The notes: generated by a model not told the origin, from the letters alone. 64,000 nucleotides of DNA from a virus (IMGVR_UViG_3300031088_000782:224001-288000); one strand, 5' to 3'. Shown: positions 9,764 through 58,608, counted from the first letter of the stretch. Made by a program: numbers and translations.

Positions 9764-10336
9764 ATGAAATATCACATTAATGATGACTATGAAGTAAAAC
9801 CTTGTAGTGCTACTGTGGATGGTCGCTGCCCTTTTTGGGGAAAACACAATGGAGATAACCATTATAACAGTGAAAATGATGCCATAGAAGCTATCGAAAC
9901 AATTCTCTCCAAAAAACACACATTTTCGTTCAAAAAGAAACATATGCAGGATGCTCAATTCATCAAACAACGAGAAGAAACACGAAAAAACCTCATTAAT
10001 TATGCGAATGTTGATGAATCTGATTTAACTCCTGTTTCAAATGTTGATGAAATGGTTAAACAATGGTTCAGTGGAGATAGAAACAAATATGATTCTTTCC
10101 AAGAAACTGCAACAAATGAAAATCTCAAAGACAACACAAAACAAGCTGTGTCCGGTTTTCTTCAAAAAGGAATGTCTGTAAATAACACTAAAAGCGTAAA
10201 AGACATTCCTTTCGAAAATACTTCAGAAAGTTTAGATGACTTTGATTCCAGCGAGATCACCTTAATTGATGACGTTCCAGATAAACTTTCATGGGATGAT
10301 CTGCGAAGCGGAGCACTCAAAGCATTTAAGCACTGA
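9764..10336 (+). CDS. HIN-C-C-H leader protein A, unknown C-terminal cargo
   Basis: MKYHINDDYEVKPCSATVDGRCPFWGKHNGDNHYNSENDA; GGGGAG RBS before ATG 9764. Confidence 0.75.
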   Translation: MKYHINDDYEVKPCSATVDGRCPFWGKHNGDNHYNSENDAIEAIETILSKKHTFSFKKKHMQDAQFIKQREETRKNLINYANVDESDLTPVSNVDEMVKQWFSGDRNKYDSFQETATNENLKDNTKQAVSGFLQKGMSVNNTKSVKDIPFENTSESLDDFDSSEITLIDDVPDKLSWDDLRSGALKAFKH

Positions 10337-10470
10337 CATTGTTTTTAATAAACGATAATTTTGTTGAACTATTGAACAACTATCAAATTCAACTTTGTCA
10401 AGTTTAAATTGTTAAAATATTCATGAAAGATTATATTTTTGAATATTTATGAATTGTGGGTAATTATAGA

Positions 10471-11859
10471 ATGGCTAAGAATAAAACTGTTTACAAATGT
10501 TTGAGCTGCGGTAAAGAATATGTTCGTGAACCTATTGGCAAGTGCTCTTCATGTGGAGCTTTTCAAAATTTCACAGAAGTTCAGGAATCATCTGTCAATC
10601 AAAGCTCCTCACAGGCTGGATTGAAAACCTCTGGGGCTTTGAAACCAAGCACAAAAGCAAGAACAATCAATGAGTTAAAGAATAACCCTATCAGCAGAAC
10701 AAAGACAGGAATTGAAGAGTTCGACAGGGTTCTTGGTGGAGGTTTTGTTGATGCAGAAGTTGTCTTAGTTGGAGGACAAGCGGGAACAGGAAAATCTACT
10801 ATCGCCTTAGATATAGCTTCGAGATATGCAAAACTTGGAAAAACAGTGCTTTATTCGTCTGGTGAAGAATCAGAACAGCAAATCGGATTAAGAGCTTCGA
10901 GAATGGGTATTGTTAATGAAAACATTAAAATAGTCAACGAAACCAGTCTTGAAGTTCTTTTAGGTCATATTGCTGATGAAAAACCTGAATTACTTATTGT
11001 TGATTCTCTTCAAACTCTTGCTTCCAGTGAAATTTCCAGTTCTATCGGATCCATTCAACAATCCAAAGAAGCAGCGCACACCCTCACTCGTTTGGCTAAA
11101 AATGAGAAAATTACAATGATTTTAGTCAATCAGCTAGTAAAGAGCGGCGAATATGCTGGTTCAGAAAGTATCAAGCATATAGTCGATGCTGCATTAATGT
11201 TTGAAAGCGATTCTGAAACACCGTTAAAGTTCCTCAGAGCCGAGAAAAATCGTTTTGGCGACACGAGTGAGGTTGGCATATTCCAACACTCAGAAACGGG
11301 TTTAGAAGAGGTTACAGACCCGAGTGGTGTGTTTATAGACAATGACAACAACGAATCTCTTTCTGGAACGTCATTAAGCTTCATCAGTGAAGGAGTGAGA
11401 CAGATTCCAGTAGAAATTCAAGCATTGGCAAGTTCATCAAATCTTCCTACCCCAAGGAAGCAATTCAACGGAGTTAATTTCAATCGTGGTCAAATTGTTT
11501 GTGCAATTCTTGATAAATTTTGCCGAACAAGACTATATGAGAATGATGTTTTCGTCAATACAATTTCAGGTATCAAAATCAATGATCCTTTAGCTGACCT
11601 TTCAATCGCTGCTTCTCTGTTGTCCTCCCTAAAAAACAAAACCTTCAAAGACAGAACAGCTTTCATCGGTGAATTGAGTCTTACAGGCCAAGTTAGAGGA
11701 GCTTTTATGATTGAAAACAAAATTAGAGAAGCTGACAGATTAGGTTTCGACAGAATAGTTATTCCGAAAACCGCTATGAAGAATCTCAGTAGCAGAAAAT
11801 ACAAAATCAAGGTTGAAACAATTTCTTCTATTAAAGACATTGAGAAAATGCTTTCCTAA
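10471..11859 (+). CDS. radA: DNA repair protein RadA/Sms
   Basis: C4 zinc finger, Walker A GGQAGTGKST, KNRFG motif, Lon-like C-terminal GELSLTGQVR. Confidence 0.95.
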   Translation: MAKNKTVYKCLSCGKEYVREPIGKCSSCGAFQNFTEVQESSVNQSSSQAGLKTSGALKPSTKARTINELKNNPISRTKTGIEEFDRVLGGGFVDAEVVLVGGQAGTGKSTIALDIASRYAKLGKTVLYSSGEESEQQIGLRASRMGIVNENIKIVNETSLEVLLGHIADEKPELLIVDSLQTLASSEISSSIGSIQQSKEAAHTLTRLAKNEKITMILVNQLVKSGEYAGSESIKHIVDAALMFESDSETPLKFLRAEKNRFGDTSEVGIFQHSETGLEEVTDPSGVFIDNDNNESLSGTSLSFISEGVRQIPVEIQALASSSNLPTPRKQFNGVNFNRGQIVCAILDKFCRTRLYENDVFVNTISGIKINDPLADLSIAASLLSSLKNKTFKDRTAFIGELSLTGQVRGAFMIENKIREADRLGFDRIVIPKTAMKNLSSRKYKIKVETISSIKDIEKMLS

Positions 11860-11905
11860 CAATTAACGAAAACTAAATAAAAACTAACAATTTTTAGCAC
11901 GAGTT

Positions 11906-11912
11906 TGATATT
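11906..11912 (+). promoter_or_regulatory. YTGATATT box
   Basis: tTGATATT 48 nt before ATG 11954. Confidence 0.45.
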
Positions 11913-11953
11913 TTCAATAACTTGCATGAAAATTTTGACAGGAGACCTCAATT

Positions 11954-12625: not shown

Positions 12626-12694
12626 AACATTTTGATTAGAAAAGGTTATGTAACAGTCTTAATAAAATTTAATGAATTCTAGGAGAAACATCTG

Positions 12695-12910: not shown

Positions 12911-12973
12911 CGGAATTTAAAAAATTAAAACCTTTTTTCTGTGAAAAATAATTTAAAAATAAATATTGAAAAC

Positions 12974-14878: not shown

Positions 14879-15784
14879 ATGACTGCTCCTTTTATAATTG
14901 GCGGACTTGTAGCTATAATGGCAGCTTTGGTGATGTATGCGCTGTTTATGCCAAAAGGAAATAACGGACAAGTATTCAGCTCAGAAGAAATGAAAGATTC
15001 AGGAACATTATTGAAAATCATGTCAAGTATTGGCAATGACTTCTACAATGCGCTTCCTGAAGGAATTGTCAAAACAAACAAGCGAGAAAGAGTAAATCCC
15101 CGCGTTGAATCTCTGATTGTCAGATCAGGAAATCCCTGGAATCTTAATGTCAATGAATTCGTCTTTCTCCAATATTTGGGTGCATTCTTAGGATTCATAG
15201 CCGGATGGATAGTCTGGTTTGGATTGAGCGTATTTACAAGCATCCCCTGGTTTGTTGTTGTGGGATTAGTAACCATCTTCGCATTCTTTATTCCCCGAAT
15301 CAAATACAACGACCAAGCAAAAGCAAGAGATTTAGAGTTCAAGCGTCAATTGCCTGAAGCACTCGACTTGCTTATTATTTCTTTGTCTGGTGGTAGGACA
15401 TTTACACAATCAGTTCGTGAAATAATTCCAAATATGAACGAAAGTGTTTTGAAAGAAGAATTCAAAAATATGGTGAAAGCCATCGACACAGGTAGAACAT
15501 TGAACGAAGCTCTTGATACTTTTGCATCAAAGTCACCTAATGAAAGTATCTTAACCTTTATTCGTTCCGTCCAATCAGCTACTGAAGTAAATGCTCCTCT
15601 TGTTGAAACTTTGGAAGCAAGAGCTGATGCGTCACGACAGGAATTCTTCGCTCTCATTCACGAAAAAACAGCCCAGCTTGAATCAAAAATATTCATGGCA
15701 TTGACTCCAACATTGATGCCAGCTGTTATGATCATTGCAATTGCCCCATCCGCATACTCCATGATGAGCACATTAGGAAGTTGA
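14879..15784 (+). CDS. tadC: Tad pilus platform protein TadC (T2SSF family)
   Basis: QLPEALDLLIISLSGG motif, TM segments, adjacent to cpaF. Confidence 0.85.
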   Translation: MTAPFIIGGLVAIMAALVMYALFMPKGNNGQVFSSEEMKDSGTLLKIMSSIGNDFYNALPEGIVKTNKRERVNPRVESLIVRSGNPWNLNVNEFVFLQYLGAFLGFIAGWIVWFGLSVFTSIPWFVVVGLVTIFAFFIPRIKYNDQAKARDLEFKRQLPEALDLLIISLSGGRTFTQSVREIIPNMNESVLKEEFKNMVKAIDTGRTLNEALDTFASKSPNESILTFIRSVQSATEVNAPLVETLEARADASRQEFFALIHEKTAQLESKIFMALTPTLMPAVMIIAIAPSAYSMMSTLGS

Positions 15785-15795
15785 GATAATAAAAA

Positions 15796-18700
15796 ATGGT
15801 AGAATTCACCAATCCTTTCAGCAATAAGAAAAAGAACAAAGTCAATACCGAAGATAATCTTGTCATAGATTCAAGTATAGAGTCATTAGCAGATAATCCT
15901 CCAGCAGAAAACAATAATGAAATAACACTTGAAAATGTAGCTGAAGAGGCACTTAAAGATAACACTCCCCTTTCTCAGCCTATTGTTAATCAAAGTCAAA
16001 CAAGTAATTTACCCAGGCTTCCTAAAATAGCTCCTGCCGATGACAGAGCTTTCGCTGAACTTTTCGAAGAAGGCGACAATGAAGAGAGTGAATTATATAG
16101 GGCAAAACAAGAGACCAATTTTGGTGAATCTTACAAAAAAGAAGTTGAAGATAAGATTATCGAACTTATTGAACGAAACATCAATGATTTAAAAAAGAAA
16201 TACCCAACAGGCGGTATCAAAGCTTCACGTTATATTACAACCGAAGTTCTCATTATGGCACCAGCAGGATATTTTGACAAATATTTGAATGATGTCTCAA
16301 GAGGAGTCGATTATGTGAGGAATAAACTTGCTGATGCTGACAAATCCGACATGATTAGGACAGCACAAGATAATCCTACTGATGATGCACTTCAAGACAG
16401 GGCTTTCTTTCTTGTTCACAGTTTAGCTTCAGAATTTATGAAAAATTCGATGTGGAGAGAAACCAATAGGAGCATTGTTGTTTCGTTTATCTGTAACGAA
16501 ATAGTAGGATTTGGAAGAATCGATCCTTTGTGGAGAGATAGAAGTATTGATGAAATCATGTGTAATGGACCAAAAGACATTCAAATCGAAATTCGTGGTG
16601 AAATTACTAAAGTTCCTGGATGTTACTTCAATAATCAGGCGCATTTGATGGAGTTGATCGACAGACTATATGGTGCAATCGGAAAAACAGTAAGCATGAC
16701 AACAGCAATGGTGAAAGGTAGACTTCACGACAAAAGCCGTATGTATGCTACCCACCCTGTTATCTCTCCAGACGGTCCAAATTTTTCAATTAGAAGACAC
16801 CCAGAGAAGTTTTGGGCACCAAGCGATCTTGTTCAAAGAGGTTCAGCTTCACCCGAAATGATGTCATACATTGGAAATCTCATTTATAAAGGAGCTTCGG
16901 TAGCCATTACAGGAGGCACCCATAGCGGCAAGGAGATGGTGGCTGAAACAAAAGTTCACACCCCTTCTGGAATAACAACAATGGGCGAAATCCAAATAGG
17001 TGACCAAATTTTCGATCATCATGGAAATATAGCTACAGTGACAAATAAATTTCCTCAACCACTTAGACAAGTATACGAAATTTCCTTCAGTAACGGAGAA
17101 AAAAGTTACGTTGGTGCTAACCATAACTGGTTTATCTCTACTCACGAGTCTAGAAAATCCAACAAATACCGCGAATCAAACAAAAAGAATTCCGGCTGGA
17201 CAAGAAAAACTAATTATTCACCAGAAATTATCGACAAAATTGAGAAAAAACTTATAGAAGTTTCAGAAAATGATTATGTTAGTTTTGCAGAAGGTTTTCG
17301 TAATGTTGGATTAAAAACAACAGGATCTAAACACCTTACAAAGCAATTAAAATCTTTAGCAAAAATAAACAGAAAAGTTTTAGCTAAAGATTTCTACAAA
17401 ACACTTCTGGAATACGGAAAGAAAAATAAAAATGATCAGAGGCACAGAAGGTCTCCGTTATTCTCTGTCATGACTACTGAAGAAATGATGAATGTTGGTC
17501 TTTTGCATAAATCTTCGGTTGATGGTCACAAAAGATACAATTTTCATATTCCTGTTCTTGAAAATGCTGTTGAATATGATAATGGTAAATCACCTGAAGA
17601 TCTGCCTATTCATCCTTATTTGTTCGGACTGTGGTTAGGAGACGGAAGCTCAAGCAAGGCTGTTTTGACCGGAGCAGCTGATGATGTTGAATTCTATAAC
17701 AACTATTTTAACTACGCCCCTGAAACAAAAATATTCAAAACTATAGGAAAATCAGATAGTAACTGGAAGATTACTGTCCTCAATTTCAGAAACAATCTTC
17801 TTGAACTGGGTGTTGTCCAAAAAACAACCGCTGAAGGCTCTAAAAAGCATATCCCCGATATCTACAAGTATGCTAGTGTAGAGTCCCGTAGAATGCTCAT
17901 TGCTGGTCTTATAGATAGTGATGGTTGGGCTAACACAAGATGCCCCGGATGGATTTTCACCAATACTAACGAAACTCTTGTTAAAGATTATATTCAAGTT
18001 GCATCATCTTTGGCTTACAAGGTTTCACGAAGTAAGGATAAGCAAAAATATTTTGATTATAAGGGCGAGAAAAAAGCTGGAAAAACTTCATGGGATGTTT
18101 CTATTGTTACTCATGATTCTTTAGCATATCTCCCAAGAAAAATCGAAGCACATAAGAAAATGCTTAAACAATTCCCGGAGAGTTTGGGAAGACAAGATGA
18201 CATTTCTATTGTTGACATTAAACCTGTTGAGGGCAGAATTGAAAACATGGTATGTATTACTGTTGACTCTCCTGACTCTACCTACATGATAGAGAACAGC
18301 TTTATCACCACTCACAACACTTCTTTGTTAAACGCTTTGACAGGCTTTTATAAGCCAAGAGTAAGAATTTTAACACTTGAAGATAACATTGAAATGAAAC
18401 CCAACCCTAAGAAATATTTAGCTGCTGCAATGGAATGTCGCGCTCCTGCTGTTGACAGACCAAGCGATAAAGGGGTTTCTATGAGAGATTTAGTGAAGGG
18501 ATCTTTGCAGTTAAGACCAGATGCTATTATCGTAGGTGAGGTAACTGATGATGCAGCCTTCGATCTTTGTCAAGCATTGAATACAGGTCATGCAGGAATG
18601 TCAACAATTCACGCTAACAGCTCTATAGAAGCTATCCCGCGTATTGCATCTTTGATTGCGCAGGGTGGTTTAGTCACATCAGAAGGAAGCTTAGAGCTTA

Positions 18701-19005
18701 TTTCTTCCGCTTTTGATATCGTTGTCTCTGTTAAGCACTTCCCTCTTGATGGATCCCGCCGAATTGTCTCTGTTGATGAAGTAGGATCAACACCAGTAGA
18801 AATAAACGGAAGACTCACACTACCTGTTTATCCATTGTGGAAGTTCATTGATGAAGGACTAAATGCGGAAGGAAAAGTCATCGGCCATTGGGAGCAGGTA
18901 GGCGATATTAGTAAAGAACGACAAGAACGAAAACTTCTCAACATTGAAGAAAGCTTAAATTGGGAAGATTTGAAAGAACTCAGCAGCATCCCTGGACAGG
19001 AGTAA
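15796..19005 (+). CDS. cpaF: Tad pilus ATPase CpaF/TadA containing an intein
   Basis: GFGRIDPL, DEIMCNG, SIRRH, Walker A GGTHSGK|T split by the intein, TLED, RPDAIIVGEV, NTGHAGMSTIHANS. Confidence 0.92.
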   Translation: MVEFTNPFSNKKKNKVNTEDNLVIDSSIESLADNPPAENNNEITLENVAEEALKDNTPLSQPIVNQSQTSNLPRLPKIAPADDRAFAELFEEGDNEESELYRAKQETNFGESYKKEVEDKIIELIERNINDLKKKYPTGGIKASRYITTEVLIMAPAGYFDKYLNDVSRGVDYVRNKLADADKSDMIRTAQDNPTDDALQDRAFFLVHSLASEFMKNSMWRETNRSIVVSFICNEIVGFGRIDPLWRDRSIDEIMCNGPKDIQIEIRGEITKVPGCYFNNQAHLMELIDRLYGAIGKTVSMTTAMVKGRLHDKSRMYATHPVISPDGPNFSIRRHPEKFWAPSDLVQRGSASPEMMSYIGNLIYKGASVAITGGTHSGKEMVAETKVHTPSGITTMGEIQIGDQIFDHHGNIATVTNKFPQPLRQVYEISFSNGEKSYVGANHNWFISTHESRKSNKYRESNKKNSGWTRKTNYSPEIIDKIEKKLIEVSENDYVSFAEGFRNVGLKTTGSKHLTKQLKSLAKINRKVLAKDFYKTLLEYGKKNKNDQRHRRSPLFSVMTTEEMMNVGLLHKSSVDGHKRYNFHIPVLENAVEYDNGKSPEDLPIHPYLFGLWLGDGSSSKAVLTGAADDVEFYNNYFNYAPETKIFKTIGKSDSNWKITVLNFRNNLLELGVVQKTTAEGSKKHIPDIYKYASVESRRMLIAGLIDSDGWANTRCPGWIFTNTNETLVKDYIQVASSLAYKVSRSKDKQKYFDYKGEKKAGKTSWDVSIVTHDSLAYLPRKIEAHKKMLKQFPESLGRQDDISIVDIKPVEGRIENMVCITVDSPDSTYMIENSFITTHNTSLLNALTGFYKPRVRILTLEDNIEMKPNPKKYLAAAMECRAPAVDRPSDKGVSMRDLVKGSLQLRPDAIIVGEVTDDAAFDLCQALNTGHAGMSTIHANSSIEAIPRIASLIAQGGLVTSEGSLELISSAFDIVVSVKHFPLDGSRRIVSVDEVGSTPVEINGRLTLPVYPLWKFIDEGLNAEGKVIGHWEQVGDISKERQERKLLNIEESLNWEDLKELSSIPGQE
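16933..18318 (+). mobile_element. 462-aa intein with LAGLIDADG endonuclease, class-3 (WCT) signature
   Basis: Inserted between K and T of Walker A; block B ANHNW; PYLFGLWLGDG and LIAGLIDSDG; block F MVCITV; ends ITTHN|T; first residue is Glu. Confidence 0.9.
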
Positions 19006-19012
19006 CTACCAT

Positions 19013-19963
19013 ATGATTTACAGTGATTTTTTCCCATATGTTATAGCGGGAGGGATAACAGCCCTTCTCGTGCTACTCGGAGTACTCATATTTTTTGCTG
19101 TAAAAAGTAGTTCTCAGAAAATGAACTATAACGAACAGCTTGAAGCACTTATTCAAGACGATGATGAAGATCAAGTTCAAGTAAAAATGGGGCTTGTCCA
19201 AAAATGGAATCATTATTGGACAGAATTATTCAAAACCGCAGGATTCGCCAGATATAAAGAGGAAAACAGTTCTGCAGGTAGAGATGTTCTATTCGGAATG
19301 ATTATATTTGCAGTATTAGTATCACTCCTTGCAAGAAATCCTATCATCGGTGTTGCTGTATCTGTTGCTCTCACCTTTGGTATCTCTGTTATCGTCAAAA
19401 ATGTTTCCAATAAAAAATCAGATAGTATCAATTACCAATTACCAGGATTCATTTTCGCCCTCAAAGCTAACATTCAAGCATCAGAAACAAACGAAAGAGC
19501 TATGCTTAAAGTTATTGATAGTATGCCTTCGCCATTATATGAAGATCTTGTTATTGTCAAAAACAAACTGCTTGCCAGTGCATCATTTAAAGAAGCCTTG
19601 GAAAATCTTGCTGAAAAAACCGCTTCAAAAGACCTTAGATTCTTAGCTGCATGTATGATTCAAGCCGCAAACAGCGGAGCAAACCTTGAATCGCAGCTTG
19701 ATTCTATTCAAAAAGTTCTTGAACAAAGAAGAAAAGTAGCTGACGAAATTAATAGAGCTGTCAAATCAGCCCAACCTGCAATCTGGTTAGCATCAGTTGT
19801 TATCCCCGGATTGTTTTTAGCAAGCTACTTCTTCGATGTAAGTTCACGTTCATTCTGGTTTGTTGAACCTATATCCTGGTTTGCACTTATCGCAACAGTA
19901 GCCTGCTACATCGGCGGAATGGCATTAGTGAAAAAACAAGTCGATGGAATTAAGAACCTATAA
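19013..19963 (+). CDS. tadB: Tad pilus platform protein TadB (T2SSF family)
   Basis: QLPGFIFALKANIQA, downstream of cpaF, TM segments. Confidence 0.85.
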   Translation: MIYSDFFPYVIAGGITALLVLLGVLIFFAVKSSSQKMNYNEQLEALIQDDDEDQVQVKMGLVQKWNHYWTELFKTAGFARYKEENSSAGRDVLFGMIIFAVLVSLLARNPIIGVAVSVALTFGISVIVKNVSNKKSDSINYQLPGFIFALKANIQASETNERAMLKVIDSMPSPLYEDLVIVKNKLLASASFKEALENLAEKTASKDLRFLAACMIQAANSGANLESQLDSIQKVLEQRRKVADEINRAVKSAQPAIWLASVVIPGLFLASYFFDVSSRSFWFVEPISWFALIATVACYIGGMALVKKQVDGIKNL

Positions 19964-19983
19964 AATATATTAAATACTTTTAA

Positions 19984-20039
19984 ATTATTGGATTAACTAT
20001 TAAAAATCAGCAAAATTAATTAATAGTTAATCCAATAAT
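19984..20039. terminator. Hairpin terminator
   Basis: ATTATTGGATTAACTATT / AATAGTTAATCCAATAAT 18-bp stem. Confidence 0.65.
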
Positions 20040-20128
20040 GGTTTTTGATAAAATATTAGATAACAATTATAAACAAAATTAAAACAAATTAAAAGCATTA
20101 TAAACATAAAGAAAGAATGTGAAACAAC

Positions 20129-20722
20129 ATGAGAAAAGAACAAATAGAATTTACCATCAATAAAAAATATATTCTCAACTCAAACGTTGTCAAGCATCAT
20201 TTCGAAAAAGCAAAAATTGCATCATACCTGCGAAATCTTGCCTCTGAAGAGGGAATAGAGCGACACCCTGAAAGAGATCTTGCAGACAGAAGACTCAGCG
20301 AAATAAAAGACTTCGCAGCAAAAACCTTGAACAAATCACGAGCACGCAAAAAAATGAACAAACAAGGGGCGGATGAAGAAGAGATTCTGAAAAGACTTGA
20401 CGAAATTGAACAAGAAAGCGGAGAAATCAAAACAACACAAGTTCCTTTCATGTTCACTCATTTCAAAATCACTCTCACAGCCTGTCCTCCGACGAAAAGA
20501 AGGATGGACCCACCGAATCTCTACCCCACCCTCAAAGCCCTCATAGACGGGCTTACAGACGCTTCCTGGTGGGTTGATGATCAATTTGCAAACCTTGTTG
20601 AAGTATCATTCAAATATGGTGGAATTTCTGGAGAAAAGGATTATTTTAAACTTATCCTTGACATAGAAGAAGTAGAAGACTGTTCAGGTTATGTTCTCGT
20701 TCCAGAATTTGTCAAAAGATGA
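20129..20722 (+). CDS. RusA-like Holliday junction resolvase
   Basis: RRMDPPNLYPTLKALIDGL..WWVDD pattern. Confidence 0.7.
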   Translation: MRKEQIEFTINKKYILNSNVVKHHFEKAKIASYLRNLASEEGIERHPERDLADRRLSEIKDFAAKTLNKSRARKKMNKQGADEEEILKRLDEIEQESGEIKTTQVPFMFTHFKITLTACPPTKRRMDPPNLYPTLKALIDGLTDASWWVDDQFANLVEVSFKYGGISGEKDYFKLILDIEEVEDCSGYVLVPEFVKR

Positions 20723-20725
20723 ATA

Positions 20726-21910
20726 ATGATTGAACAACTATTGTTAGAATGGAATCCCAAAAACAAATTTTCGCTCACCGAAGATAAATTAGGATCCCAT
20801 AGAAAAGCATTATGGATTTGTGGAAAAAGCCATGAATACGAATCAGCAATAAGAAATAGAGCTAATGGGTCTCAATGTCCTTATTGTAGCGGAAAACTTG
20901 CTATTGCAGGGGAAACAGACCTAAAAACAACACATCCACATTTGATTAAAGAATGGGATGTTGAGAAAAACACAATTTATCCAAACAAAGTGAAAGCAGG
21001 AAGCAACAAGAAAGTTTGGTGGAAATGCTCTCTCAATCATGAATGGGAAGCTACCCCTAACAATAGAACATCTCAAACTTCCGGTTGTCCTTATTGTAAA
21101 AATAAAAAATTATTATCAGGATACAATGATGCAAAATCTGTTTATCCTCAATATGAAGAAGAATATGATACAGATAAAAACATTGAACAATATAATAAAA
21201 TATTTTTAAACACCAAGAAGAAGTATTGGTGGATTTGCAAACTCGAACATTCTTATGAATCAGCCGGGGAGAAGAAAGTGTTAGGTGAAGGATGTCCGTA
21301 TTGCGTTAACAGAAAAATTCTCAAAGGGTTTAATGATTTGGAAAGTCAATATCCTGAACTAGCTGAACAATGGGATTATGAAAAGAACGTAAGTTTAGTG
21401 CCCTCAGAAATAATTTCAGGGTCTCATACAAGAGTTTGGTGGAAATGCAAAAATGGACATAGTTGGATTACACAAGTGGCATTTCGCGCTACTCACATAA
21501 GAAAATCGGGCTGTCCAGATTGTTCTAAACGAGTATCAAAAGGAGAACAAGAAGTAAGAAAATTTGCCGAAAATATTCTTCAAGAAAAATCCTTAAACAA
21601 CAACAGAAAAATAATAACTCCTTACGAACTTGACATATATTTCCCTGAAAAGAAAATCGCTATTGAATTTAATGGTACCTACTGGCACAGCGATATTCAA
21701 ATACGGAAATCAAGAAACATGTCAGCTGAAGATTATCACAGTCATAAAATAGACAAATGTAGAGAAAAAGACATTATTTTACTCATTGTTTGGCAAGACG
21801 ATTGGGAGAGCAATGCAGATATTGTTAAAAGAGACATTGAAAAAGCCTTGTTGAATAACAAAATTTCTTCAATGTTGAGAAAAACAATTAACGGGGAAAA
21901 AGAGGAGTAA
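20726..21910 (+). CDS. Zinc-ribbon repeat endonuclease, paralog of 1040..2428
   Basis: 4 zinc-ribbon repeats; ELDIYFPEKKIAIEFNGTYWHSD. Confidence 0.75.
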   Translation: MIEQLLLEWNPKNKFSLTEDKLGSHRKALWICGKSHEYESAIRNRANGSQCPYCSGKLAIAGETDLKTTHPHLIKEWDVEKNTIYPNKVKAGSNKKVWWKCSLNHEWEATPNNRTSQTSGCPYCKNKKLLSGYNDAKSVYPQYEEEYDTDKNIEQYNKIFLNTKKKYWWICKLEHSYESAGEKKVLGEGCPYCVNRKILKGFNDLESQYPELAEQWDYEKNVSLVPSEIISGSHTRVWWKCKNGHSWITQVAFRATHIRKSGCPDCSKRVSKGEQEVRKFAENILQEKSLNNNRKIITPYELDIYFPEKKIAIEFNGTYWHSDIQIRKSRNMSAEDYHSHKIDKCREKDIILLIVWQDDWESNADIVKRDIEKALLNNKISSMLRKTINGEKEE

Positions 21911-21911
21911 A

Positions 21912-22391
21912 ATGTCTGATAGATACGTTTATACTGCCAACATGACGAACTTCTTTTCAAGAGAATTATATATGTATAGCCTCGGTGACATTAAATTCAA
22001 AAAACCGATTTCGTTGAAAAAGGTAGCTTATACAACTGCTTTCGTAATTATTTGGACACTTCCTATTATACTTATTTTTGGAATTCAGCTTAATCCATTC
22101 TATTTTGCTATTGTGCTTTTGCCGCCTTTTGTTTTGGGTAATTTTGCTGCTAAGCCTGTATGGGGCGGTAGAGGATTAGTTGATTTTATTAAAACTTTGA
22201 GTGGATTCATTGCTGAACCTAAAGGGTGGACGGATTTGAATGCTACTAATGTATTAGATAAAGAAGTTCTATTCATTGAACAAGAAATTTGGATAAGCCG
22301 ACGAAGAGAATTGTATCTTCTTGCTCAACTGAAAGAGCAGAAAGAGCGTGAGTCTGGAAAAATCAAACCCCGAAAGAAATTGAGAAAGTGA
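21912..22391 (+). CDS. TcpE/VirB3-like conjugation membrane protein
   Basis: MTNFFSRELYMYSLGDIKFKKPIS start, two TM segments, immediately before a VirB4-like ATPase. Confidence 0.65.
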   Translation: MSDRYVYTANMTNFFSRELYMYSLGDIKFKKPISLKKVAYTTAFVIIWTLPIILIFGIQLNPFYFAIVLLPPFVLGNFAAKPVWGGRGLVDFIKTLSGFIAEPKGWTDLNATNVLDKEVLFIEQEIWISRRRELYLLAQLKEQKERESGKIKPRKKLRK

Positions 22392-22397
22392 TAAAGC

Positions 22398-23594
22398 ATG
22401 GCAAACAAGTTTAATTATTCAACAAGTATGTTTATTGGAACTACGACTAATGGTATTGAAATGCCTGTATTCTTTGATACTCATACTCCTATCTTCAACA
22501 ACAACCCGCCTGGAATACTTATTACAGGTCAACCGGGTTCTGGTAAAACATTCTTGGCTATGACTTTGACAGCTATTTGTGCAATTATTGGAAAAATCAC
22601 AGTAGTGCTTGACCCTAAAGGTGATTTTCTTGCTCTCAATGAAATTAAAGAAGATGTTGGAGATATAAGTTTCTGGAATCTGGCAGATAGGAGACAAAAG
22701 GGAATATTAGATCCTTTTTATATGGCTGATGATAAGGGTGATCAATTGGATCTTGTTCTCAGTGTTATTGACATGTTTGTGGGAGGTTTGACTGGCGATC
22801 AGTTGACTCACCTTTCTCCTGTTGTCAAAGATGTTCAAGAAATGCATGTTCCCTCTCTTTTGGCGGTTACGGATGCTTTACAGACTTCGCCTCATTCAAT
22901 AGCTAGAAATTTGGGAGCGCATTTGGATCTTGTTAGAAGATTACCTTTTGCTGATTTGTGTTTCGCACCTGGTTCAAGGAAGAGAAAAAACGTTAAGTTT
23001 GATAGTGGTGTTACTGTTATTACATTGATTGGTCTTGAACTTACTCCTGAGTCGGACAATAATAATGTCAGCCAAACTAACGCAAATAAGAAACGACTTT
23101 CTTCAGCTATTTTCTTTCTTTTGACAGACTTTATTCGAAGAATCATGTACAATGATACTTCTGATAGTCCAAAAACTTTAATTATTGACGAAGCATGGGC
23201 TGTTTTATCTACCCCTGCTGGTGCTGAATGCATTAAATCGGTTGCCCGTCTTGGTCGTTCTAAGCGCCTTGCTATGATTCTTGTTACTCAAAACAATTCA
23301 GATGTGAAAAAGATGAGTATTGAAAACACAATTACAACACGTTTTGCTTTTAAAACAGATCCAACTGAGGCTTCTGACATTGTTGAAGGTATGCAGCTTC
23401 CTATTGGGGAAAGTTTTGAGAATGCTCTTATAGGTTTGAATAATGGAGAATGCCTGTTCAAGGACTTCCAGGGGCGTTATTCTACTATACAGATCAGCGA
23501 TTGGCGTAGAAGCTGGACTGAAGCGTTTGAAACTAATCCTCTTGAAAAAATGCGAGCACAAAAGAAAAAACAAGCGTTGGCAAAGAATAAGTAG
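22398..23594 (+). CDS. Short VirB4/TcpF-like conjugation ATPase (AAA_10-like)
   Basis: Walker A GQPGSGKT, VVLDPKGD, Walker B IIDEAW, RLGRSK..LVTQN. Confidence 0.8.
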   Translation: MANKFNYSTSMFIGTTTNGIEMPVFFDTHTPIFNNNPPGILITGQPGSGKTFLAMTLTAICAIIGKITVVLDPKGDFLALNEIKEDVGDISFWNLADRRQKGILDPFYMADDKGDQLDLVLSVIDMFVGGLTGDQLTHLSPVVKDVQEMHVPSLLAVTDALQTSPHSIARNLGAHLDLVRRLPFADLCFAPGSRKRKNVKFDSGVTVITLIGLELTPESDNNNVSQTNANKKRLSSAIFFLLTDFIRRIMYNDTSDSPKTLIIDEAWAVLSTPAGAECIKSVARLGRSKRLAMILVTQNNSDVKKMSIENTITTRFAFKTDPTEASDIVEGMQLPIGESFENALIGLNNGECLFKDFQGRYSTIQISDWRRSWTEAFETNPLEKMRAQKKKQALAKNK

Positions 23595-23598
23595 ATTC

Positions 23599-23605
23599 TG
23601 ATATT
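23599..23605 (+). promoter_or_regulatory. YTGATATT box upstream of cpaB
   Basis: cTGATATT 73 nt before ATG 23672. Confidence 0.45.
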
Positions 23606-23671
23606 CCTTTATGGAACAAGAACCACAACTACCACTTTATAGCTATTTTATGTAGGAAGGAATTGCTGAGT

Positions 23672-24565
23672 ATGGCATCTAAAGGAAAGAAAGGTCTGAA
23701 AAGTAACGGACTGATTCTCATAGCAATAGGCGTAGTATCTCTTATTCTGTTTGGAGTCGTTTTCTCAGTAGCTTCGAAACTATTTCAGACAGAAACATAT
23801 TACGTTCTTAAACAAGACGTTCCGACGAGAACACAGGTAACAGAAGAAATGCTTGAACCTGTTGTTACATCTGAGGGAACAGCACCAGAAGCAGCTATCG
23901 GTTTAGCTGACGTTCAGACAGGAAATGTTTACACCCAATACCCACTTCTGTCAGGAGATATTCTTACTATGTCTAATGTTGGAGCAATGGAAGACATTTC
24001 TGTTGGTATTCCTGATACTTGGGTTATCACAAACTTCTCAGTAAACGCGGATGATGCTGTTGGCGGAAGAATCCAAAGAGGAACATATTTTGACATTATG
24101 GTCACATCCGATGATGGTTCATTCTATCCTTTTGTCAATGTTCTTGCACTTGACACAACAGTAGATCTCAGCAATGCATCCTCTTCTGAAGCTGCTGATT
24201 CCGAAGAGGCACATGAAGGACAAACCTCACAATATGTTGTTGGTATGTCTCCTGAAAATGCCGCTAAATTACAAAACATTGTCAAAAAGTACAACAATGA
24301 CATCAAACTCGTTCTTTCACCAAGACAGAATGAATACGAGAAACCACAACTTGCTTCTTACAGCGGTAACTTCAAGTTTGCATCAGGTGACGAAACTATT
24401 GCACCAGGACAAGGTGAAGATGGAGAGCAAACTGACTACACATTCACTGATGTTGAACGTGATGCATTCGGAAGACCAGTTGAGAAACTTGAAAACTGTT
24501 CATCAGGAAACTCAAAGGTTGCTGGTGAAGATTGTAAAGACAGTGAAACACAATCTGATGAGTAA
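23672..24565 (+). CDS. cpaB: Flp pilus assembly protein CpaB/RcpC (SAF domain)
   Basis: N-terminal TM, SAF-like YYVLKQDVP, AVGGRIQRGTYFDI, VLALD, VVGMSPENA. Confidence 0.8.
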   Translation: MASKGKKGLKSNGLILIAIGVVSLILFGVVFSVASKLFQTETYYVLKQDVPTRTQVTEEMLEPVVTSEGTAPEAAIGLADVQTGNVYTQYPLLSGDILTMSNVGAMEDISVGIPDTWVITNFSVNADDAVGGRIQRGTYFDIMVTSDDGSFYPFVNVLALDTTVDLSNASSSEAADSEEAHEGQTSQYVVGMSPENAAKLQNIVKKYNNDIKLVLSPRQNEYEKPQLASYSGNFKFASGDETIAPGQGEDGEQTDYTFTDVERDAFGRPVEKLENCSSGNSKVAGEDCKDSETQSDE

Positions 24566-24584
24566 TAGTTTAGATTAAGCAATA

Positions 24585-24637
24585 AAAACCATAGGGCTGT
24601 AGTAGGTTTGGAAACATTCATACAGCCCTATGGTTTT
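24585..24637. terminator. Hairpin terminator
   Basis: AAAACCATAGGGCTGTA / TACAGCCCTATGGTTTT. Confidence 0.7.
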
Positions 24638-24654
24638 GTCTGAAAATACTATTC

Positions 24655-24661
24655 TGATATT
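24655..24661 (+). promoter_or_regulatory. YTGATATT box upstream of cpaE-like gene
   Basis: cTGATATT 132 nt before ATG 24787. Confidence 0.45.
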
Positions 24662-24786
24662 AAAACATGGAAGCGTGAAAACTTCTAAATGAAAACCAAA
24701 AATAATTATTTCTTCGTCTACCACCACGAAGAAGAGGGTAAGATTATTCAGTAGATCACCCAACTTCTGAAAGAAAAGGGAAAAAC

Positions 24787-26142
24787 ATGCCAGTACGTCC
24801 AAAAGCAATATTTGTAGGGCCAGCAAAGCTTGGCGAACATTTAGAGAAATTGAGAAAAGGCTGGGACTTCGTTAGCATTGTGCCAGATATCGCAAGTCTT
24901 TGGAACGGCCTCAACAACCAGACTATTGATGACAATGTTCAGGTAATAATAACCTTAGACGGATTCTTCAAACCAGATTCGGAAGAAGATTCATCATTTG
25001 AGCAGTTAGTTGCCATGATGTCCCCCCATTGTTTCTTCTTAATTGTGTCTTATATGCCAGAATACGAAAGCCAAATGAGATCAAGAATCAGCTCAGAGTC
25101 TCATGCTGTCGGAAATGGTGGAAATGAAGAATACTTTTTCGTTGACCCAAAACGTCCCAACCTGACAATCGACAGAGCACTTGCAGAATATATTAAAAAC
25201 ACTGAAAACAAAGAAGTAGCCGCTATTCTTGATGGAAGAGAAATAGAGCAAGATCCCGCTACACAAGAACTGCAAGAAGTTCAACCAGCTCCTGTAGCCA
25301 CAGATTATAACTTTGATGACATTGAAAGTGACAAGTTGGGACAGGTTGTTGCTATCACATCAAGTAAAGGTGGATCCGGCAAGTCTACTGTTGCAACAAC
25401 CTTAGCAACATATTTAGCTCATTCTTCAATCAACTCCGTTAAAGAAGGACTAGAAGAAAAGCCACTCAAAATCTGTATTCTCGACTTGGACGTTAGGGAC
25501 GGTCAGATTGGATTCTTAACAGGAAACCTTCAGCCTACAGTTCTTCATATGAGATCGCATGGTATTGATCCTCAAACTCTCAGTGAAACAATCATTTACA
25601 GTGAAAGACTGAAAGTAGATTTGCTATTAGCACCTAAAAGACCAAGACTTTCAGATGATACTCCAGCTGAATTCTACTTAGAACTTATTCAATTTTTGAA
25701 ACGATTCTATGATTATGTCATTTTGGATACTTCTGTGAACTATCTTGATCCATTATTGGAGAAAGTTGCTTATCCGATTGCAGATCAAATTATTTTCGTT
25801 TCAGACATTGTTGTTCATTCTGTTTATTCAATGACACGATGGATTCAAGAGGTTACAAAACCTAAGAGTCAGCAGGGAATGGGAATAGACAAAAAGAAAA
25901 TCGGTATTGTTGTCAATAAATCAATGGCGAACATCAGCATGTCAGGCGAAAAAATCGCTAAAAGTGCACTTGGTCTCCCAGTTCTGACAGTTATACCAAA
26001 CAACGCTAAACTTTTGGCACACGCAGCTAACCTTCAGTCAATGGAGCAAGTTCTGAGACATGCAGATATCAAAAACTCTATCAGGCTATTAGCGCGTCGT
26101 ATCGTCGGTAAAAAATATAAACTTACTGATAACGTGTCATAA
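24787..26142 (+). CDS. CpaE/TadZ-like MinD/ParA-family ATPase with N-terminal receiver-like domain
   Basis: Deviant Walker A SSKGGSGKST, ILDLD, YVILDTS, IGIVVNKS. Confidence 0.8.
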   Translation: MPVRPKAIFVGPAKLGEHLEKLRKGWDFVSIVPDIASLWNGLNNQTIDDNVQVIITLDGFFKPDSEEDSSFEQLVAMMSPHCFFLIVSYMPEYESQMRSRISSESHAVGNGGNEEYFFVDPKRPNLTIDRALAEYIKNTENKEVAAILDGREIEQDPATQELQEVQPAPVATDYNFDDIESDKLGQVVAITSSKGGSGKSTVATTLATYLAHSSINSVKEGLEEKPLKICILDLDVRDGQIGFLTGNLQPTVLHMRSHGIDPQTLSETIIYSERLKVDLLLAPKRPRLSDDTPAEFYLELIQFLKRFYDYVILDTSVNYLDPLLEKVAYPIADQIIFVSDIVVHSVYSMTRWIQEVTKPKSQQGMGIDKKKIGIVVNKSMANISMSGEKIAKSALGLPVLTVIPNNAKLLAHAANLQSMEQVLRHADIKNSIRLLARRIVGKKYKLTDNVS

Positions 26143-26224: not shown

Positions 26225-26315
26225 CCTCTTTTATCAACACCAGTAGACAAAATTTTATAAACATTATAGAAAGCACTTATAAGGCACAGAGACATTCTAC
26301 AAAAGGACAGCTGAC

Positions 26316-27524
26316 ATGGGCAAATTTCACATTAATGACAAAGATGAAGTAAAACCATGTAAAGCAACTATCAAAAAATGTAAATTTGGAGATAAGAAAC
26401 ATTTTTCAACAATTCATGAAGCAGAACAAGAATTAGTAGAAAATTTTAACAATAAAACTATAAAAACTCTATCAAAGATCAAACCTGACACTTTATCTGC
26501 AAACATCAGTAAAAACTACTCTCATTTGTCAATAATCTTCGACCACATGCACAACAGCGGCCACACAGGAAACGAACTTGAACAGTACTATTACAATTCC
26601 CCTGCTGGAAGGTTAGAACTTGAAAGAAGAACAGGAAAAGGGAATAACATAGACAAAACTTATATAAAAATAAAAGAAATAATTGACGATCCTGAATTCC
26701 AACCAATTGACACAAAAATTAACGAAAACAAACTTAATGAATCAATTCAAACAGGTTATGAAAGTTTTTCTGAAAAGTTTGGCGAAAAAGACAAAGAATT
26801 AGATTACGAATACAGCGATATTGATCCTAAAACAAATGAAATGAGACATGCTTTAGTGGAAGAATCTCACAAGTGGTATCTTAATCTTTCAACAGAACAG
26901 CAGGAAGCTATTTCCGAACTTACATCATCAGGATTTGAAAAACTTCAATATGCTCATGGAATCAAAACAAATTCACCAGCAAATTTTATTTTTGACACAG
27001 ACATAGATATAGATGAATTTTATGAAACTTATGATGGAAATGATTTTAAAGAAGAACTCAATAGAAGATTCTCATCAATAGGAGATGAATACAAGAAAAA
27101 TATTGATGAAGCTTTTAAACATACCCCCAAACTTGAAAAACCTATCATAACATACCGAGGAACAAGTTTAGAAGAAATCAAAGAAATAGCAGGATTCGAT
27201 TCAGAAACAGATGACAAACAATTCACAGAAAAAATGTTAAATGGAGAACTCGATAATCAGAATATTAGTGAAAAATCTAGATTAGCTAATTTACCTATTT
27301 CTTCAACAGTTTCAACAAACATTGCTAAAAGATTCGGTAAAGGAATATATTTAGAAATTAAACGTCACACATCAAGCAGTCCTGTATTGAACAGCGCATG
27401 GGGAAGCTACGAACAAGAATTTTTGACAAACCCGAACAGTAAATACAAAATAATCGAAGCAGTAGAAAGTCAAAATAAAAGAGACAAAGGATTGATCGTT
27501 CGAATAGAAGAAATAGCTAATTGA
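26316..27524 (+). CDS. HIN-C-C-H leader protein B: ADP-ribosyltransferase (R-S-E clade, VIP2/exotoxin-like)
   Basis: Leader MGKFHINDKDEVKPCKATIKKCKFGDKKHF; C-terminal ITYRG, ISSTVS, YEQEFL. Confidence 0.8.
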   Translation: MGKFHINDKDEVKPCKATIKKCKFGDKKHFSTIHEAEQELVENFNNKTIKTLSKIKPDTLSANISKNYSHLSIIFDHMHNSGHTGNELEQYYYNSPAGRLELERRTGKGNNIDKTYIKIKEIIDDPEFQPIDTKINENKLNESIQTGYESFSEKFGEKDKELDYEYSDIDPKTNEMRHALVEESHKWYLNLSTEQQEAISELTSSGFEKLQYAHGIKTNSPANFIFDTDIDIDEFYETYDGNDFKEELNRRFSSIGDEYKKNIDEAFKHTPKLEKPIITYRGTSLEEIKEIAGFDSETDDKQFTEKMLNGELDNQNISEKSRLANLPISSTVSTNIAKRFGKGIYLEIKRHTSSSPVLNSAWGSYEQEFLTNPNSKYKIIEAVESQNKRDKGLIVRIEEIAN

Positions 27525-43812: not shown

Positions 43813-43816
43813 CTGT

Positions 43817-55734: not shown

Positions 55735-55776
55735 TAATTCCGATTCAATTTTCTCAATGGTTTTTGCTGAATTGCC

Positions 55777-55806
55777 TTGACAAATTTTGTTCAACTGTTA
55801 TATAAT
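55777..55806 (+). promoter_or_regulatory. sigma70/SigA-type promoter
   Basis: TTGACA-18-TATAAT. Confidence 0.75.
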
Positions 55807-55846
55807 ATTTTTAATAGGTAATTGTGCAAAGTTTGAGAATTGAAAG

Positions 55847-56290: not shown

Positions 56291-56421
56291 ATGCAATGTT
56301 GAAAAATTTTAAAAAGAACTGTTTTTAACAATTGTGCATAAATAGGTCAAACAGAATGCCCGGATCTTGTTTTATCAGATCCGGGCATTATTTATGTTGT
56401 CATTTGTTCATCACAATGGTG

Positions 56422-56928
56422 TTAGATTCGCTTTTTCTTGATAACTTTGACCGCGAGCTTCTTTGCGCTTGATGAGCAATTCTTCTGGTAACGCATTACA
56501 CTCTTTGGGCTTCCCATTTTCTGTGCCATGCAATCCGCGAGTGCTTCTACTCCGCCGTATCCTTTGCGCCCAAACATTTTATTGGCTTTGTTGGACAGCT
56601 TGTAGAATCCGCTGGGGCTTGCGAATTGAAGCATGTGTGAGCATTCGTGACGAGCGGCATACTTACGCATTGTCACACTCTTTGAGTTGAGTCGTTTACT
56701 GAATAGTAAAGTATTTCCCGAGGCGAGCGCGAGGACACCTGAACGAAGATTTTGATTTGACTTGAATTTGTAGCCTTTTCCGCAATATTTTTTGACATAG
56801 GACTTGTAGGTGCTTGCGCTAACGGCTTCTGCTGGTGTGGGGGCTGTGATAGCACCACCGAAAGCAATGAAGAGAGCCATAATCGCAGCAATGAGATATT
56901 TGGTGCTCTTAGATACAGTTGTTTTCAT
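56422..56928 (-). CDS. Secreted basic HEXXH zinc-metallopeptidase-like protein
   Basis: Signal peptide ending TPAEA|; ARHECSH; EALADC. Confidence 0.7.
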   Translation of the reverse strand: MKTTVSKSTKYLIAAIMALFIAFGGAITAPTPAEAVSASTYKSYVKKYCGKGYKFKSNQNLRSGVLALASGNTLLFSKRLNSKSVTMRKYAARHECSHMLQFASPSGFYKLSNKANKMFGRKGYGGVEALADCMAQKMGSPKSVMRYQKNCSSSAKKLAVKVIKKKRI

Positions 56929-57226
56929 TTGTTGTCTTCCTTAATGTTTGTGAATGATTTGTCTAAGTTTGACAGTGTTTCATCCTGTTTGAACGGGTTT
57001 CGTTGTGTTTCTATAAGGATTCTATCAGTGTTTTCAGCATATATCAAACGATTCACACAGTTTCACAAAAATTTCGGTAGTTTTTCAGTAGTTTTGAATA
57101 TGAGTCAGTAGTTGCCTGTCAGATAGGATTTTTGGTCAAAAGTTGATGAATCTGCTTGATTAATTTGTTTGAGTGTTGTATTATTATAATAATAGAGAAA
57201 TAGTTAAACAATGATTTGAGAAGGAT

Positions 57227-57439
57227 TTGATGAAAATGGCTCAGCGTTATTACGATTCGCATGATTTTACGAACAACACGAATGAGGTTTTGAGTGTGAT
57301 GCTTGAACCCGGTGAAATTGTTGAGGTTCGTAGCGGTTCACGACCTCTTGATGTTTCTCGTTATTCTGGTGAAGAGTTTGGTTATGAGGTTGAGGTTAGC
57401 CCGAATGAATCAATGAGAACGATTAAGTTTGCCGATTAA
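57227..57439 (+). CDS. Small hypothetical protein (intact paralog of 35181..35370)
   Basis: AAGGA RBS; hairpin at 57467-57509. Confidence 0.7.
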   Translation: MMKMAQRYYDSHDFTNNTNEVLSVMLEPGEIVEVRSGSRPLDVSRYSGEEFGYEVEVSPNESMRTIKFAD

Positions 57440-57585
57440 TCCACAATCATTGACTATATTTGATTGACGAAATTTCCCTAATACTTGTTGAATATTAGGG
57501 AAATTTCGTTTATGGGTAGAAAAATTGATTATTCGCTGATATAGAAAAACGTTTTAAATCCGTTTTCTTTGTAGGGGTGTTTTTC

Positions 57586-58608
57586 GTGTCATCTTCTGTT
57601 CGTTATCATATTAATCCTGAAACTGGCAATGCAAACTTGTGTCGTGCTGATTTTGGTAACTGCCCTTATGAGAAAAACAATTTTGAAGAACATTACGCAA
57701 CAAAACAAGATGCACAGAAAGCTTATGAAAAGAGAATGGAAAACCCGATTAGTGAGAATAGCCGATTAATGAAAATTCGCGGAAAAGTTCACCAAACTAT
57801 CATGAATAGATTAATGGATCATTCTGAATCTACTGCGTTTTTGTCAAAAGATAAAGAACATATTTCATCAGTTTATTTACGTAATAGAATAGATGATTTT
57901 TTGAGTTCATATTCTCCCAATGGTGTTGATGATTCGGGAAGATTGGACACTACTCCATTAACAATAAGGGCACCGAAAATTTCTTATACCGATGAAGTGA
58001 TAGTTGGATTTGAGGGAGTGTATGAAGATATACGCAAAGACTATCCTGAATTATTAAATGACATGAACACTGCTGGCGAAAAATGGATAGACAATTGCTC
58101 ATCAGATGAAGCATGGGCGGTTTACAAATATTCTTGCGATTCTACCGAATATGCTGAAACGTATTCGCAAAATGATAATGTTTTTGCTGAAAATTTGAAC
58201 AATGCTTTGACTAAGGCTCCCAAGTTTTCTGAACCTTTGACAGTGTTTTCTGGTTTATCGTACCAGGCAAGAGATTTGGTCATGGATCAGAACCCTACTG
58301 TTGGTTCGGTTATCAATATAGATAGAGTGCTTTCAACATCTGTGAATCCTGCACAAGCGAACGGTTTTATGCGCGGGGATTTTCTTTCTAATGGAGAAAT
58401 TGTTGATGGTAAAAAAGTTGCTTTGAAGATTATTGCTGATAGGGGAGGCGTAATGAGTTCTGTCAGTCGCCATCAGGATGAGCTTGAAGTTTTACTGCCA
58501 AAATCGGATTATGAAGTTGTTGAGATAGAGCAGAATAAAGAATTAATGTGGGGCGAAGGAAAAAGAGGGATGGTTGCTGACGTTATTCTCACTTTGCGCA
58601 TGAAATGA
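57586..58608 (+). CDS. HIN-C-C-H leader protein C: ADP-ribosyltransferase-like (atypical motif 1)
   Basis: Leader RYHINPETGNANLCRADFGNCPY..HY; LTVFSG (Arg to Ser), LSTSV, DELEVLL. Confidence 0.75.
   Translation: MSSSVRYHINPETGNANLCRADFGNCPYEKNNFEEHYATKQDAQKAYEKRMENPISENSRLMKIRGKVHQTIMNRLMDHSESTAFLSKDKEHISSVYLRNRIDDFLSSYSPNGVDDSGRLDTTPLTIRAPKISYTDEVIVGFEGVYEDIRKDYPELLNDMNTAGEKWIDNCSSDEAWAVYKYSCDSTEYAETYSQNDNVFAENLNNALTKAPKFSEPLTVFSGLSYQARDLVMDQNPTVGSVINIDRVLSTSVNPAQANGFMRGDFLSNGEIVDGKKVALKIIADRGGVMSSVSRHQDELEVLLPKSDYEVVEIEQNKELMWGEGKRGMVADVILTLRMK

Follow-up and report, generated by a model that had tools for sequence, protein, structure and literature searches.

In polymorphic toxins, an N-terminal trafficking domain is joined to a variable C-terminal toxin, and the toxin is accompanied by an immunity gene (PMC3482391; Zhang et al. 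2012). Polyvalent proteins combine 2–15 effector domains, usually including a zincin-like peptidase, with headers such as ArdC-N and MuF (PMC5512222; Iyer et al. 2017). For the latter, it has been proposed that delivery of the DNA brings the effector domains along, an N-terminal "header" linking them to the conjugation apparatus (PMC5512222). In phage T4, N-terminal packaging signals and a packaged ADP-ribosyltransferase (ART) are established (PMC5512222). Here, we analysed a stretch of 64,000 nucleotides (the window), which corresponds to positions 224,001–288,000 of the record IMGVR_UViG_3300031088_000782 (referred to as G000; 309,534 bp, 35% GC, listed in IMG/VR as a provirus), and bears three genes, A, B and C, whose products open with a common leader module marked by a His-Cys-Cys-His (HCCH) signature. 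The results clearly placed A, B and C in a very large uncatalogued family, in which an autonomous N-terminal domain is combined with interchangeable enzymes.

The His-Cys-Cys-His module and its family

All three genes are located on the plus strand. Gene A (9764..10336) starts with an ATG preceded by the ribosome-binding site GGGGGAG and encodes 190 amino acids, where the module occupies residues ~1–58 and the remaining cargo has no match in Pfam, NCBIfam or PHROG. Its leader gave E=1.6e-34 with a profile built from the three leaders, and a full-length ortholog was found in a second giant record of 345 kb (G405; BLASTP E=3e-16). Gene B (26316..27524, 402 amino acids) combines the HCCH module with a probable ART of the R-S-E type (YRG, SST, EQE). 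Gene C (57586..58608, 340 amino acids) comprises the HCCH module, a helical hairpin (residues ~57–107) and an ART-like C-terminus; it starts with a GTG eight bases past AGGGG, and an alternative GTG is present further upstream, at 57577.

The original prediction, which had described three unlinked genes opening with a common module, was borne out: all three open reading frames (ORFs) are real, the peptide strings given earlier match letter for letter, and a six-frame scan with a regular expression found exactly three copies of the module in the window. The first ~55 residues of A, B and C can be aligned, with H, I, N, C, A and C being invariant. The length of ~40 residues assigned earlier turned out to be too short, as the module actually spans ~55–60 residues and runs through an acidic helix into a K[YH]G..SSLKKK tail. 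Just as had been noted before, the three proteins bear no hydrophobic signal peptide of the Sec type (read directly from the sequence), and no neighbour of the three genes behaves as an immunity gene: gene A is followed directly downstream by RadA, gene B by a convergent gene, and gene C by a 97-residue acidic ORF, which is not conserved in a syntenic locus from another element (L040).

A search of the whole replicon with the three-leader profile, as had been suggested, revealed 11 copies in G000 against the three in the window (E values of 1e-34 to 1e-5, far beyond chance), and every one of them opens an ORF. Their consensus reads M-x-K-[YF]-H-[IV]-N-P-E-T-G-x4-C-x-A-x4-C-P-[FY]-G-x7-H-[YF]-x-T-K-E-E-A. 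The predicted H-C-C-H pattern held in 148 full-length relatives, where the H, C, C and H, along with the Ala of EEA, are invariant; it did not hold in the copy joined to the CCA-adding enzyme, which has Asn instead of the second His. An aromatic residue stands beside three of the four putative ligands. Conservation extends through the acidic helix to the K[YH]G..SSLKKK tail and ceases beyond it, and a Lys/Ser-rich linker connects the module to the cargo enzyme. With a mean net charge of −0.6, the module core is slightly acidic, and its helix is rich in Glu. Since the same residues are retained across elements of 35–64% GC, the constraint acts on the protein rather than on the DNA or mRNA. Between paralogous leaders of a single genome, the identity is 25–45%.

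The AlphaFold2 modelling of 141 leaders predicted a β-hairpin (residues 6–9 and 16–19), a loop and a helix (residues 40–52), at a predicted local distance difference test (pLDDT) score of 75. The four His/Cys ligands would hold one zinc ion, such that the H-C-C-H arrangement is a putative zinc site. Searches for known counterparts gave next to nothing. In Pfam, the same 141 leaders at E≤5 yielded only faint matches to DUF2188 (15/141, best 0.004), DUF5633 (11/141) and zf-CCCH, and the module is not represented in NCBIfam or PHROGs. Foldseek found no solved counterpart in the PDB at E≤0.001, the best hit of VIA-align over 48,161 chains was a Kunitz domain with a Z of 3.7, and the clusters of the AlphaFold database contained one likely true member (A0A229VXR6, residues 2–49, 31% identity), the remainder being Kunitz-like noise. 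A full-text literature search with the peptide motif returned nothing relevant. Taken together, the data describe an uncatalogued, autonomous and, judging from its conserved residues, probably metal-binding domain.

To estimate the size of the family, the profile made of the 11 leaders was searched against 1.84 billion protein representatives, with clusters defined at 50% identity. At E≤1e-3 it matched 5,114 clusters, of which 788 also reached E≤1e-10; of the 150 best clusters, 146 had a match that started within the first 25 residues. This is thus one of the larger domain families missing from Pfam, NCBIfam, PHROGs and the PDB. All cluster members that were looked up come from metagenome assemblies, one of them from an 828-kb contig (Ga0540622_0000002); word-based homolog searches likewise gave few matches, all metagenomic, and the ESM Atlas contains several clusters with an N-terminal module, labelled Uroviricota. 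The module also occurs in other arrangements: two copies in tandem (P0012), three copies without any cargo (P0014, 228 amino acids), multiple copies, two or three, in P0097, and C-terminal copies (P0077, P0098), along with stand-alone module proteins of 52–79 residues.

The searches for loci in species genomes and in IMG/VR were made with a narrower alignment, which reaches only the [KR]YHINPE(T) subtype. Within this subtype, the sole other IMG/VR record is G405 (IMGVR_UViG_3300045988_179014), which is 344,889 bp long, has inverted terminal repeats and bears 14 leader genes. A single-query tblastn with one leader found none in 50,697 GenBank phage records or 72,556 PLSDB plasmids. A pattern scan of 185,579 species genomes detected four loci with one copy each, all in metagenome-assembled genomes (MAGs) of uncultured Actinomycetota. 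The protein in question (L014, 3986–4522, and the same place in L015–L017) is chromosomal, 178–185 residues long, and has the module at its N-terminus and a C-terminal tail that by eye is hydrophobic and transmembrane-like; its neighbours are not conserved. In this protein, Glu or Asp is present in place of the Ala that the family conserves after the first Cys. A connection of the MAG copy to an adjacent exonuclease was considered but dropped, since a different gene lies next to the copy in the other three MAGs. In 400 Actinomycetota genomes, no copy was found beyond the centre genome (16 candidates scored per genome).

Exchangeable cargo and a common upstream motif

The 148 relatives resemble one another only over the first ~60 residues, and the mean column identity is 5% overall. 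In G000, the cargo includes ADPrib_exo_Tox (one secure case, with B and C weak) and a CCA-adding/poly(A) polymerase-type enzyme (PolyA_pol), and seven leader proteins have no secure family match. Among the 148 relatives, Pfam recognised ART (3), 2H-SAK (2), RNase_T (2), HEAT (2), Zeta_toxin/AAA_33, Fic, LPD1 and DUF7717, with the majority of the cargo falling into no Pfam family. The leader proteins of G405 carry ART-PolyVal (2e-14), RNase_T, RNA_lig_T4_1, Peptidase_M78, 2H-SAK (1e-19) and HD_4; further matches were obtained to 2H-SAK (7e-23) and LPD1 (6e-6), and, among the Pfam-annotated leader proteins, a peptidase (M78, E=1e-8) is carried by L029 only. Elsewhere, HD_4 and LRV cargo is present, and ORFs found with the leader profile overlap genes called as T5orf172 and GmrSD_C. 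Each Pfam-annotated leader protein has a single cargo module. By Pfam naming, ART-PolyVal, 2H-SAK and LPD1 are domains of polyvalent proteins, which have been described as effectors that accompany the DNA of phages and conjugative elements (PMC5512222). Judged by these family assignments, the cargo resembles the early effector sets of invading elements.

Direct evidence for the replacement of cargo came from gene order. The succession T5orf172 / leader gene / MoxR-type AAA / DUF2201_N is common to the window (54988–61911) and to L040, a 79-kb contig of 64% GC. At this syntenic slot, the leader of L040 is 60% identical to that of gene C, and the rest of the protein is unrelated. Shared between an element of 35% GC and another of 64%, this gene order shows that a single lineage of giant elements spans a very broad range of GC content. 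The predicted architecture of a conserved N-terminus with variable C-termini is thus upheld both by thousands of relatives and by the cargo swap at a fixed position; the C-termini are diverse rather than uniform, and the family is not mainly chromosomal. Since the paralogous leaders have diverged so far from one another, the modularity is evolutionary and does not reflect active cassette switching. Two short relatives of gene C retain the leader together with the helical hairpin and lack the ART part.

Two of the three window genes had been described as carrying ART motifs, which proved only partly secure, both matches being weak. The gene B product displays the full R / S-T-S / E-x-E pattern, and its residues 261–399 match phrog_3895 ("ADP-ribosyltransferase exoenzyme toxin") at E=4e-4; no profile match exceeds a curated threshold, and neither a Pfam match nor a PDB sequence match was obtained. 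Gene C matched PF03496 at E=1e-3 with 18.9 bits, below the cut-off of 23.4. In gene C and its orthologs P0015 and P0054, the STS and ExE motifs are kept and [FY]SG (residues ~215–225) replaces the catalytic Arg motif, which suggests that gene C encodes either an altered or an inactive ART. In the AlphaFold2 model of gene C, residues 1–125 have a pLDDT of 67–85, and the ART part has ~30, too poor for a structure search. The ADPrib_exo_Tox assignment is secure in a paralog at G000:167218 (2e-12, passing the curated cut-off). An hhalign comparison of B and C with the alignment of this secure paralog was not significant (probability ~2%), and a phmmer search against the PDB for confirmation of the ART was empty.

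The 11 leader genes of G000 are dispersed, whereas in related elements they are packed in arrays, with ~11 genes in 21 kb on the 828-kb contig, 9 in 21 kb on the 79-kb contig and 5 in 13 kb on another; these array-bearing metagenomic contigs have 55–64% GC. Most leader genes are preceded by the motif TTAGA[AG]A at −30 to −60 from the start codon. In the window, the variant TTAGATA is located 38 nucleotides before the start of gene A (9725..9731), ATAGAAAG 49 nucleotides before gene B (26266..26273), and ATAGAAAA 44 nucleotides before gene C (57541..57548), all on the plus strand. In G000, the motif precedes 8 of 10 leader genes (binomial P ~6e-14 vs. the intergenic rate), and in four loci of 55–64% GC (L037, L038, L040, L041) it was found before 13 of 25 leader genes vs. 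3 of 74 other genes (Fisher P=3e-7). Nearly all leader genes without the motif lie ≤10 nucleotides behind another leader gene, and some non-leader genes have it upstream as well. In L038, the motif is often preceded by a GC-rich hairpin. The possibility that TTAGARA is a general motif of the element was rejected, as 30 sites were counted genome-wide vs. ~45 expected, and they are concentrated before leader genes. We read TTAGA[AG]A as a promoter-like mark of a class of genes that is strongly enriched in leader genes. Since they are mostly separate units behind the shared motif, the leader genes look like one co-regulated class.

Giant elements as carriers

Gene B directly follows a Tad-type cluster (14879..26142, plus strand), for which Pfam identified two T2SSF genes, a CpaF-like T2SSE, an RcpC-like and a ParA/TadZ-like gene, and which encloses TcpE (21912–22391) and an AAA_10 ATPase (22398–23594). 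Near the cluster, a PilT-like ATPase adjoins a gene with a Replic_Relax match. This match is sub-threshold (E=0.0015), so that the "relaxase" attributed to the element by the original prediction amounts to this single hit. AAA_10 is present as a 399-residue open frame in both G000 and G405, and G405 has 3–4 T2SSE genes; TcpE was found solely in the record of the window and not in G405. Two further features of this region were noted. The CpaF/TadA-like ATPase (15796–19005, 1069 amino acids) shows weak matches to Hom_end and LAGLIDADG at residues ~686–757, consistent with an intein. Two proteins are made of 4–5 DUF4379 treble-clef zinc finger repeats (E ~1e-62), one encoded at 1040–2428, and the other at 20726–21910, within the Tad/TcpE cluster.

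Profiles of seven virion families (Terminase_6N, Terminase_6C, TerL_ATPase, Terminase_3, HK97 capsid, portal, sheath) matched nothing in G000 or G405 under conditions where the control genomes responded; the search covered these two records and not the remaining ~370 kb of a 681-kb contig to which G000 probably belongs. An exact copy of one G000 leader protein is present on this contig (681,645 bp in ENA, ERZ27247443 k141_1824489), and G000 is therefore probably part of something larger. Because AAA_10/T2SSE (Tad-type) genes are present and the seven virion families remain unmatched, the carriers look like giant elements of a plasmid-like kind whose transfer genes are of the Gram-positive type. 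Inverted terminal repeats are unusual among tailed phages, and G405, although filed as a virus, may be a giant linear element of the plasmid-like kind. On the whole, the module is associated with giant elements carrying AAA_10 and Tad-type ATPases, and the leader family is strongly expanded in a lineage of such elements of ~0.3–0.8 Mb and 35–64% GC. The Inocle elements of oral streptococci, which are similar in size and GC (PMC12340149), were considered as the element type and set aside; the window comes from a phyllosphere metagenome, which is also the public run that best holds its DNA.

Just upstream of gene A, in the region 2568–9592 of the window, lies a gene for an RHS-repeat protein of 2123 amino acids (PF05593 2e-76, DUF6531 3e-14). 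A 217-residue ORF without a known family begins within its stop codon, and the pair is polymorphic-toxin-like.

Possible roles of the module and comparison with known systems

We tentatively favour the interpretation that the module is an address label through which the cargo is brought to the same partner, the transfer route being the likeliest candidate. As a header, the domain would dock many different enzymes onto one shared partner, preferably the transferred DNA strand or a component of the Tcp/Tad-type apparatus, such that anti-defence, RNA-repair and protein-modifying enzymes would be in the new cell before the genes of the element are expressed. The parts of this interpretation differ in their strength. 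That a common partner of some kind exists is likely. That this partner is the DNA-transfer route of the element is rather doubtful; the original prediction went further and saw in the module a signal for loading onto the Tad/VirB4/relaxase machinery, which is plausible and in line with the header idea (PMC5512222). It is somewhat unlikely that the module is the recognition domain of a new delivery pathway of giant Tad/Tcp-type elements, probably of Actinomycetota, by which dozens of tagged, co-regulated enzymes would be sent with the DNA or ahead of it into the recipient.

Several observations weigh against this interpretation. In type IV secretion, the substrate signals known so far sit at the C-terminus. 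Tandem, triple, C-terminal and stand-alone copies of the module, as well as the chromosomal anchored ones, fit better with a folded binding domain than with a position-dependent signal. The slightly acidic core argues against direct binding of nucleic acid by the core itself. A CCA-adding enzyme and a T4-type RNA ligase are useful without any transfer or export. Furthermore, IMG/VR lists both giant records as viral, and the ESM Atlas label of several clusters with the module is Uroviricota.

If the module is indeed an address label, the family would provide a list, searchable by sequence, of the enzymes deployed by giant mobile elements on their hosts; it would comprise more than 5,000 clusters, the majority of the enzymes having no known family, and the 55-residue tag together with the seven-nucleotide upstream motif would be a handle for finding and testing them. 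It could be the first functional entry point into a lineage of 0.3–0.8 Mb that is apparently absent from the GenBank phage and PLSDB collections searched. If the delivery reading proves true, the module would be a folded N-terminal secretion signal of a new class, and its natural substrates would number in the thousands.

The alternative that survives best, though we regard it as somewhat unlikely, is a binding domain that acts inside the cell and is never exported. It would be either a CCCH-like zinc knuckle guiding enzymes to RNA or DNA ends (tRNA repair, nucleases) or, in the cell that the element already occupies, a contact to a host hub, for instance the ribosome or RNA polymerase. The copies found in tandem, in triplicate, at C-termini or on their own behave as expected of such a domain, and a chromosomal membrane-anchored version in Actinomycetota MAGs conforms to it too. 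Cargo that acts on nucleic acids or nucleotides is common (the CCA-adding enzyme, T4-type RNA ligase, 2H phosphoesterase, DEDD exonuclease and HD_4), and leader genes overlap the called T5orf172 and GmrSD_C genes; however, the ART, Fic, Zeta and M78 peptidase cargo needs no nucleic-acid address. In RNA-binding CCCH fingers, aromatic residues flank the ligands, which is also the case for three of the four ligands here, and faint zf-CCCH and DUF2188 matches were obtained in Pfam, but no known nucleic-acid-binding fold was matched significantly (the best VIA-align hit was the Kunitz domain at Z 3.7), the core is mildly acidic and the helix is Glu-rich. Such a domain would also leave unexplained why the family expanded in one lineage of transfer-competent giant elements.

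It is improbable that the module is a control tag, that is, a zinc or redox switch or a recognition site for a protease or chaperone (e.g., MoxR AAA / DUF2201), serving to time or remove the enzymes. The promoter-like motif common to the class suggests co-ordinated timing, the K[YH]G..SSLKKK tail with its flexible linker could be a processing site, and, because no adjacent immunity genes were seen, the ART, Zeta and Fic enzymes would need some other restraint. MoxR-type AAA and DUF2201_N adjoin leader genes in two syntenic elements, but this adjacency concerns one slot only, cleavage or degradation has no specific support, and the tandem and cargo-less forms are hard to explain by such a role. 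Very improbable is the possibility that the carriers are divergent jumbo phages and the module a capsid-targeting signal, as in T4 Alt, for enzymes that are packed and injected: the viral listing of both records in IMG/VR, the Uroviricota labels in the ESM Atlas, phage-like content (T5orf172 and RNA ligase) and the T4 precedent speak for it, whereas seven virion families are unmatched in both 309–345-kb records with responding controls, the tblastn with a single leader was empty in 50,697 GenBank phages, no PHROG contains the module, and inverted terminal repeats like those of G405 are unusual in tailed phages.

At the level of the domain itself, CCCH fingers, the N-terminal zinc domain of Ada (PF02805) and the HCCH motif of HIV Vif likewise place four His/Cys within ~30 residues with flanking aromatics, and the structure neighbours of the module in the ESM Atlas include the N-termini of proteins annotated as Ada_Zn_binding. 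The module differs from all of them in the order and spacing of its ligands (H-x10-C-x6-C-x10-H), and no significant sequence or fold match was obtained.

With T4 Alt and internal proteins, the leader family shares ART and other enzymes, a common N-terminal address and the notion of early action in the entered cell. The prohead protease cuts off the T4 capsid-targeting signal, which is a short peptide, whereas the leader is predicted by modelling to be a folded Cys/His domain, and the two giant records yielded no virion gene of the seven families searched.

The likeness to polymorphic toxins lies in the conserved N-terminus, the exchangeable C-terminal enzymes, the many paralogs and the replacement of cargo at a fixed locus. 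Here the similarity ends: no adjacent immunity genes were seen around A, B and C, the leader has no hydrophobic signal and matches no known secretion-linked trafficking domain (Pfam, NCBIfam, PHROG), the paralogous leaders, only 25–45% identical, show no sign of recent cassette recombination, and some of the cargo is restorative (the CCA-adding enzyme and RNA ligase).

Polyvalent proteins share with the leader family the setting of invading elements and a good part of the vocabulary (ART-PolyVal, 2H-SAK, LPD1, metallopeptidase and RNA-end/nucleotide enzymes). In contrast to them, leader proteins have one cargo domain instead of 2–15 and need no processing peptidase, their header is a ~55-residue His-Cys-Cys-His domain, and their genes are arrayed as separate units with a motif of their own. 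In other words, the system would be a counterpart of polyvalent proteins with one enzyme per protein.

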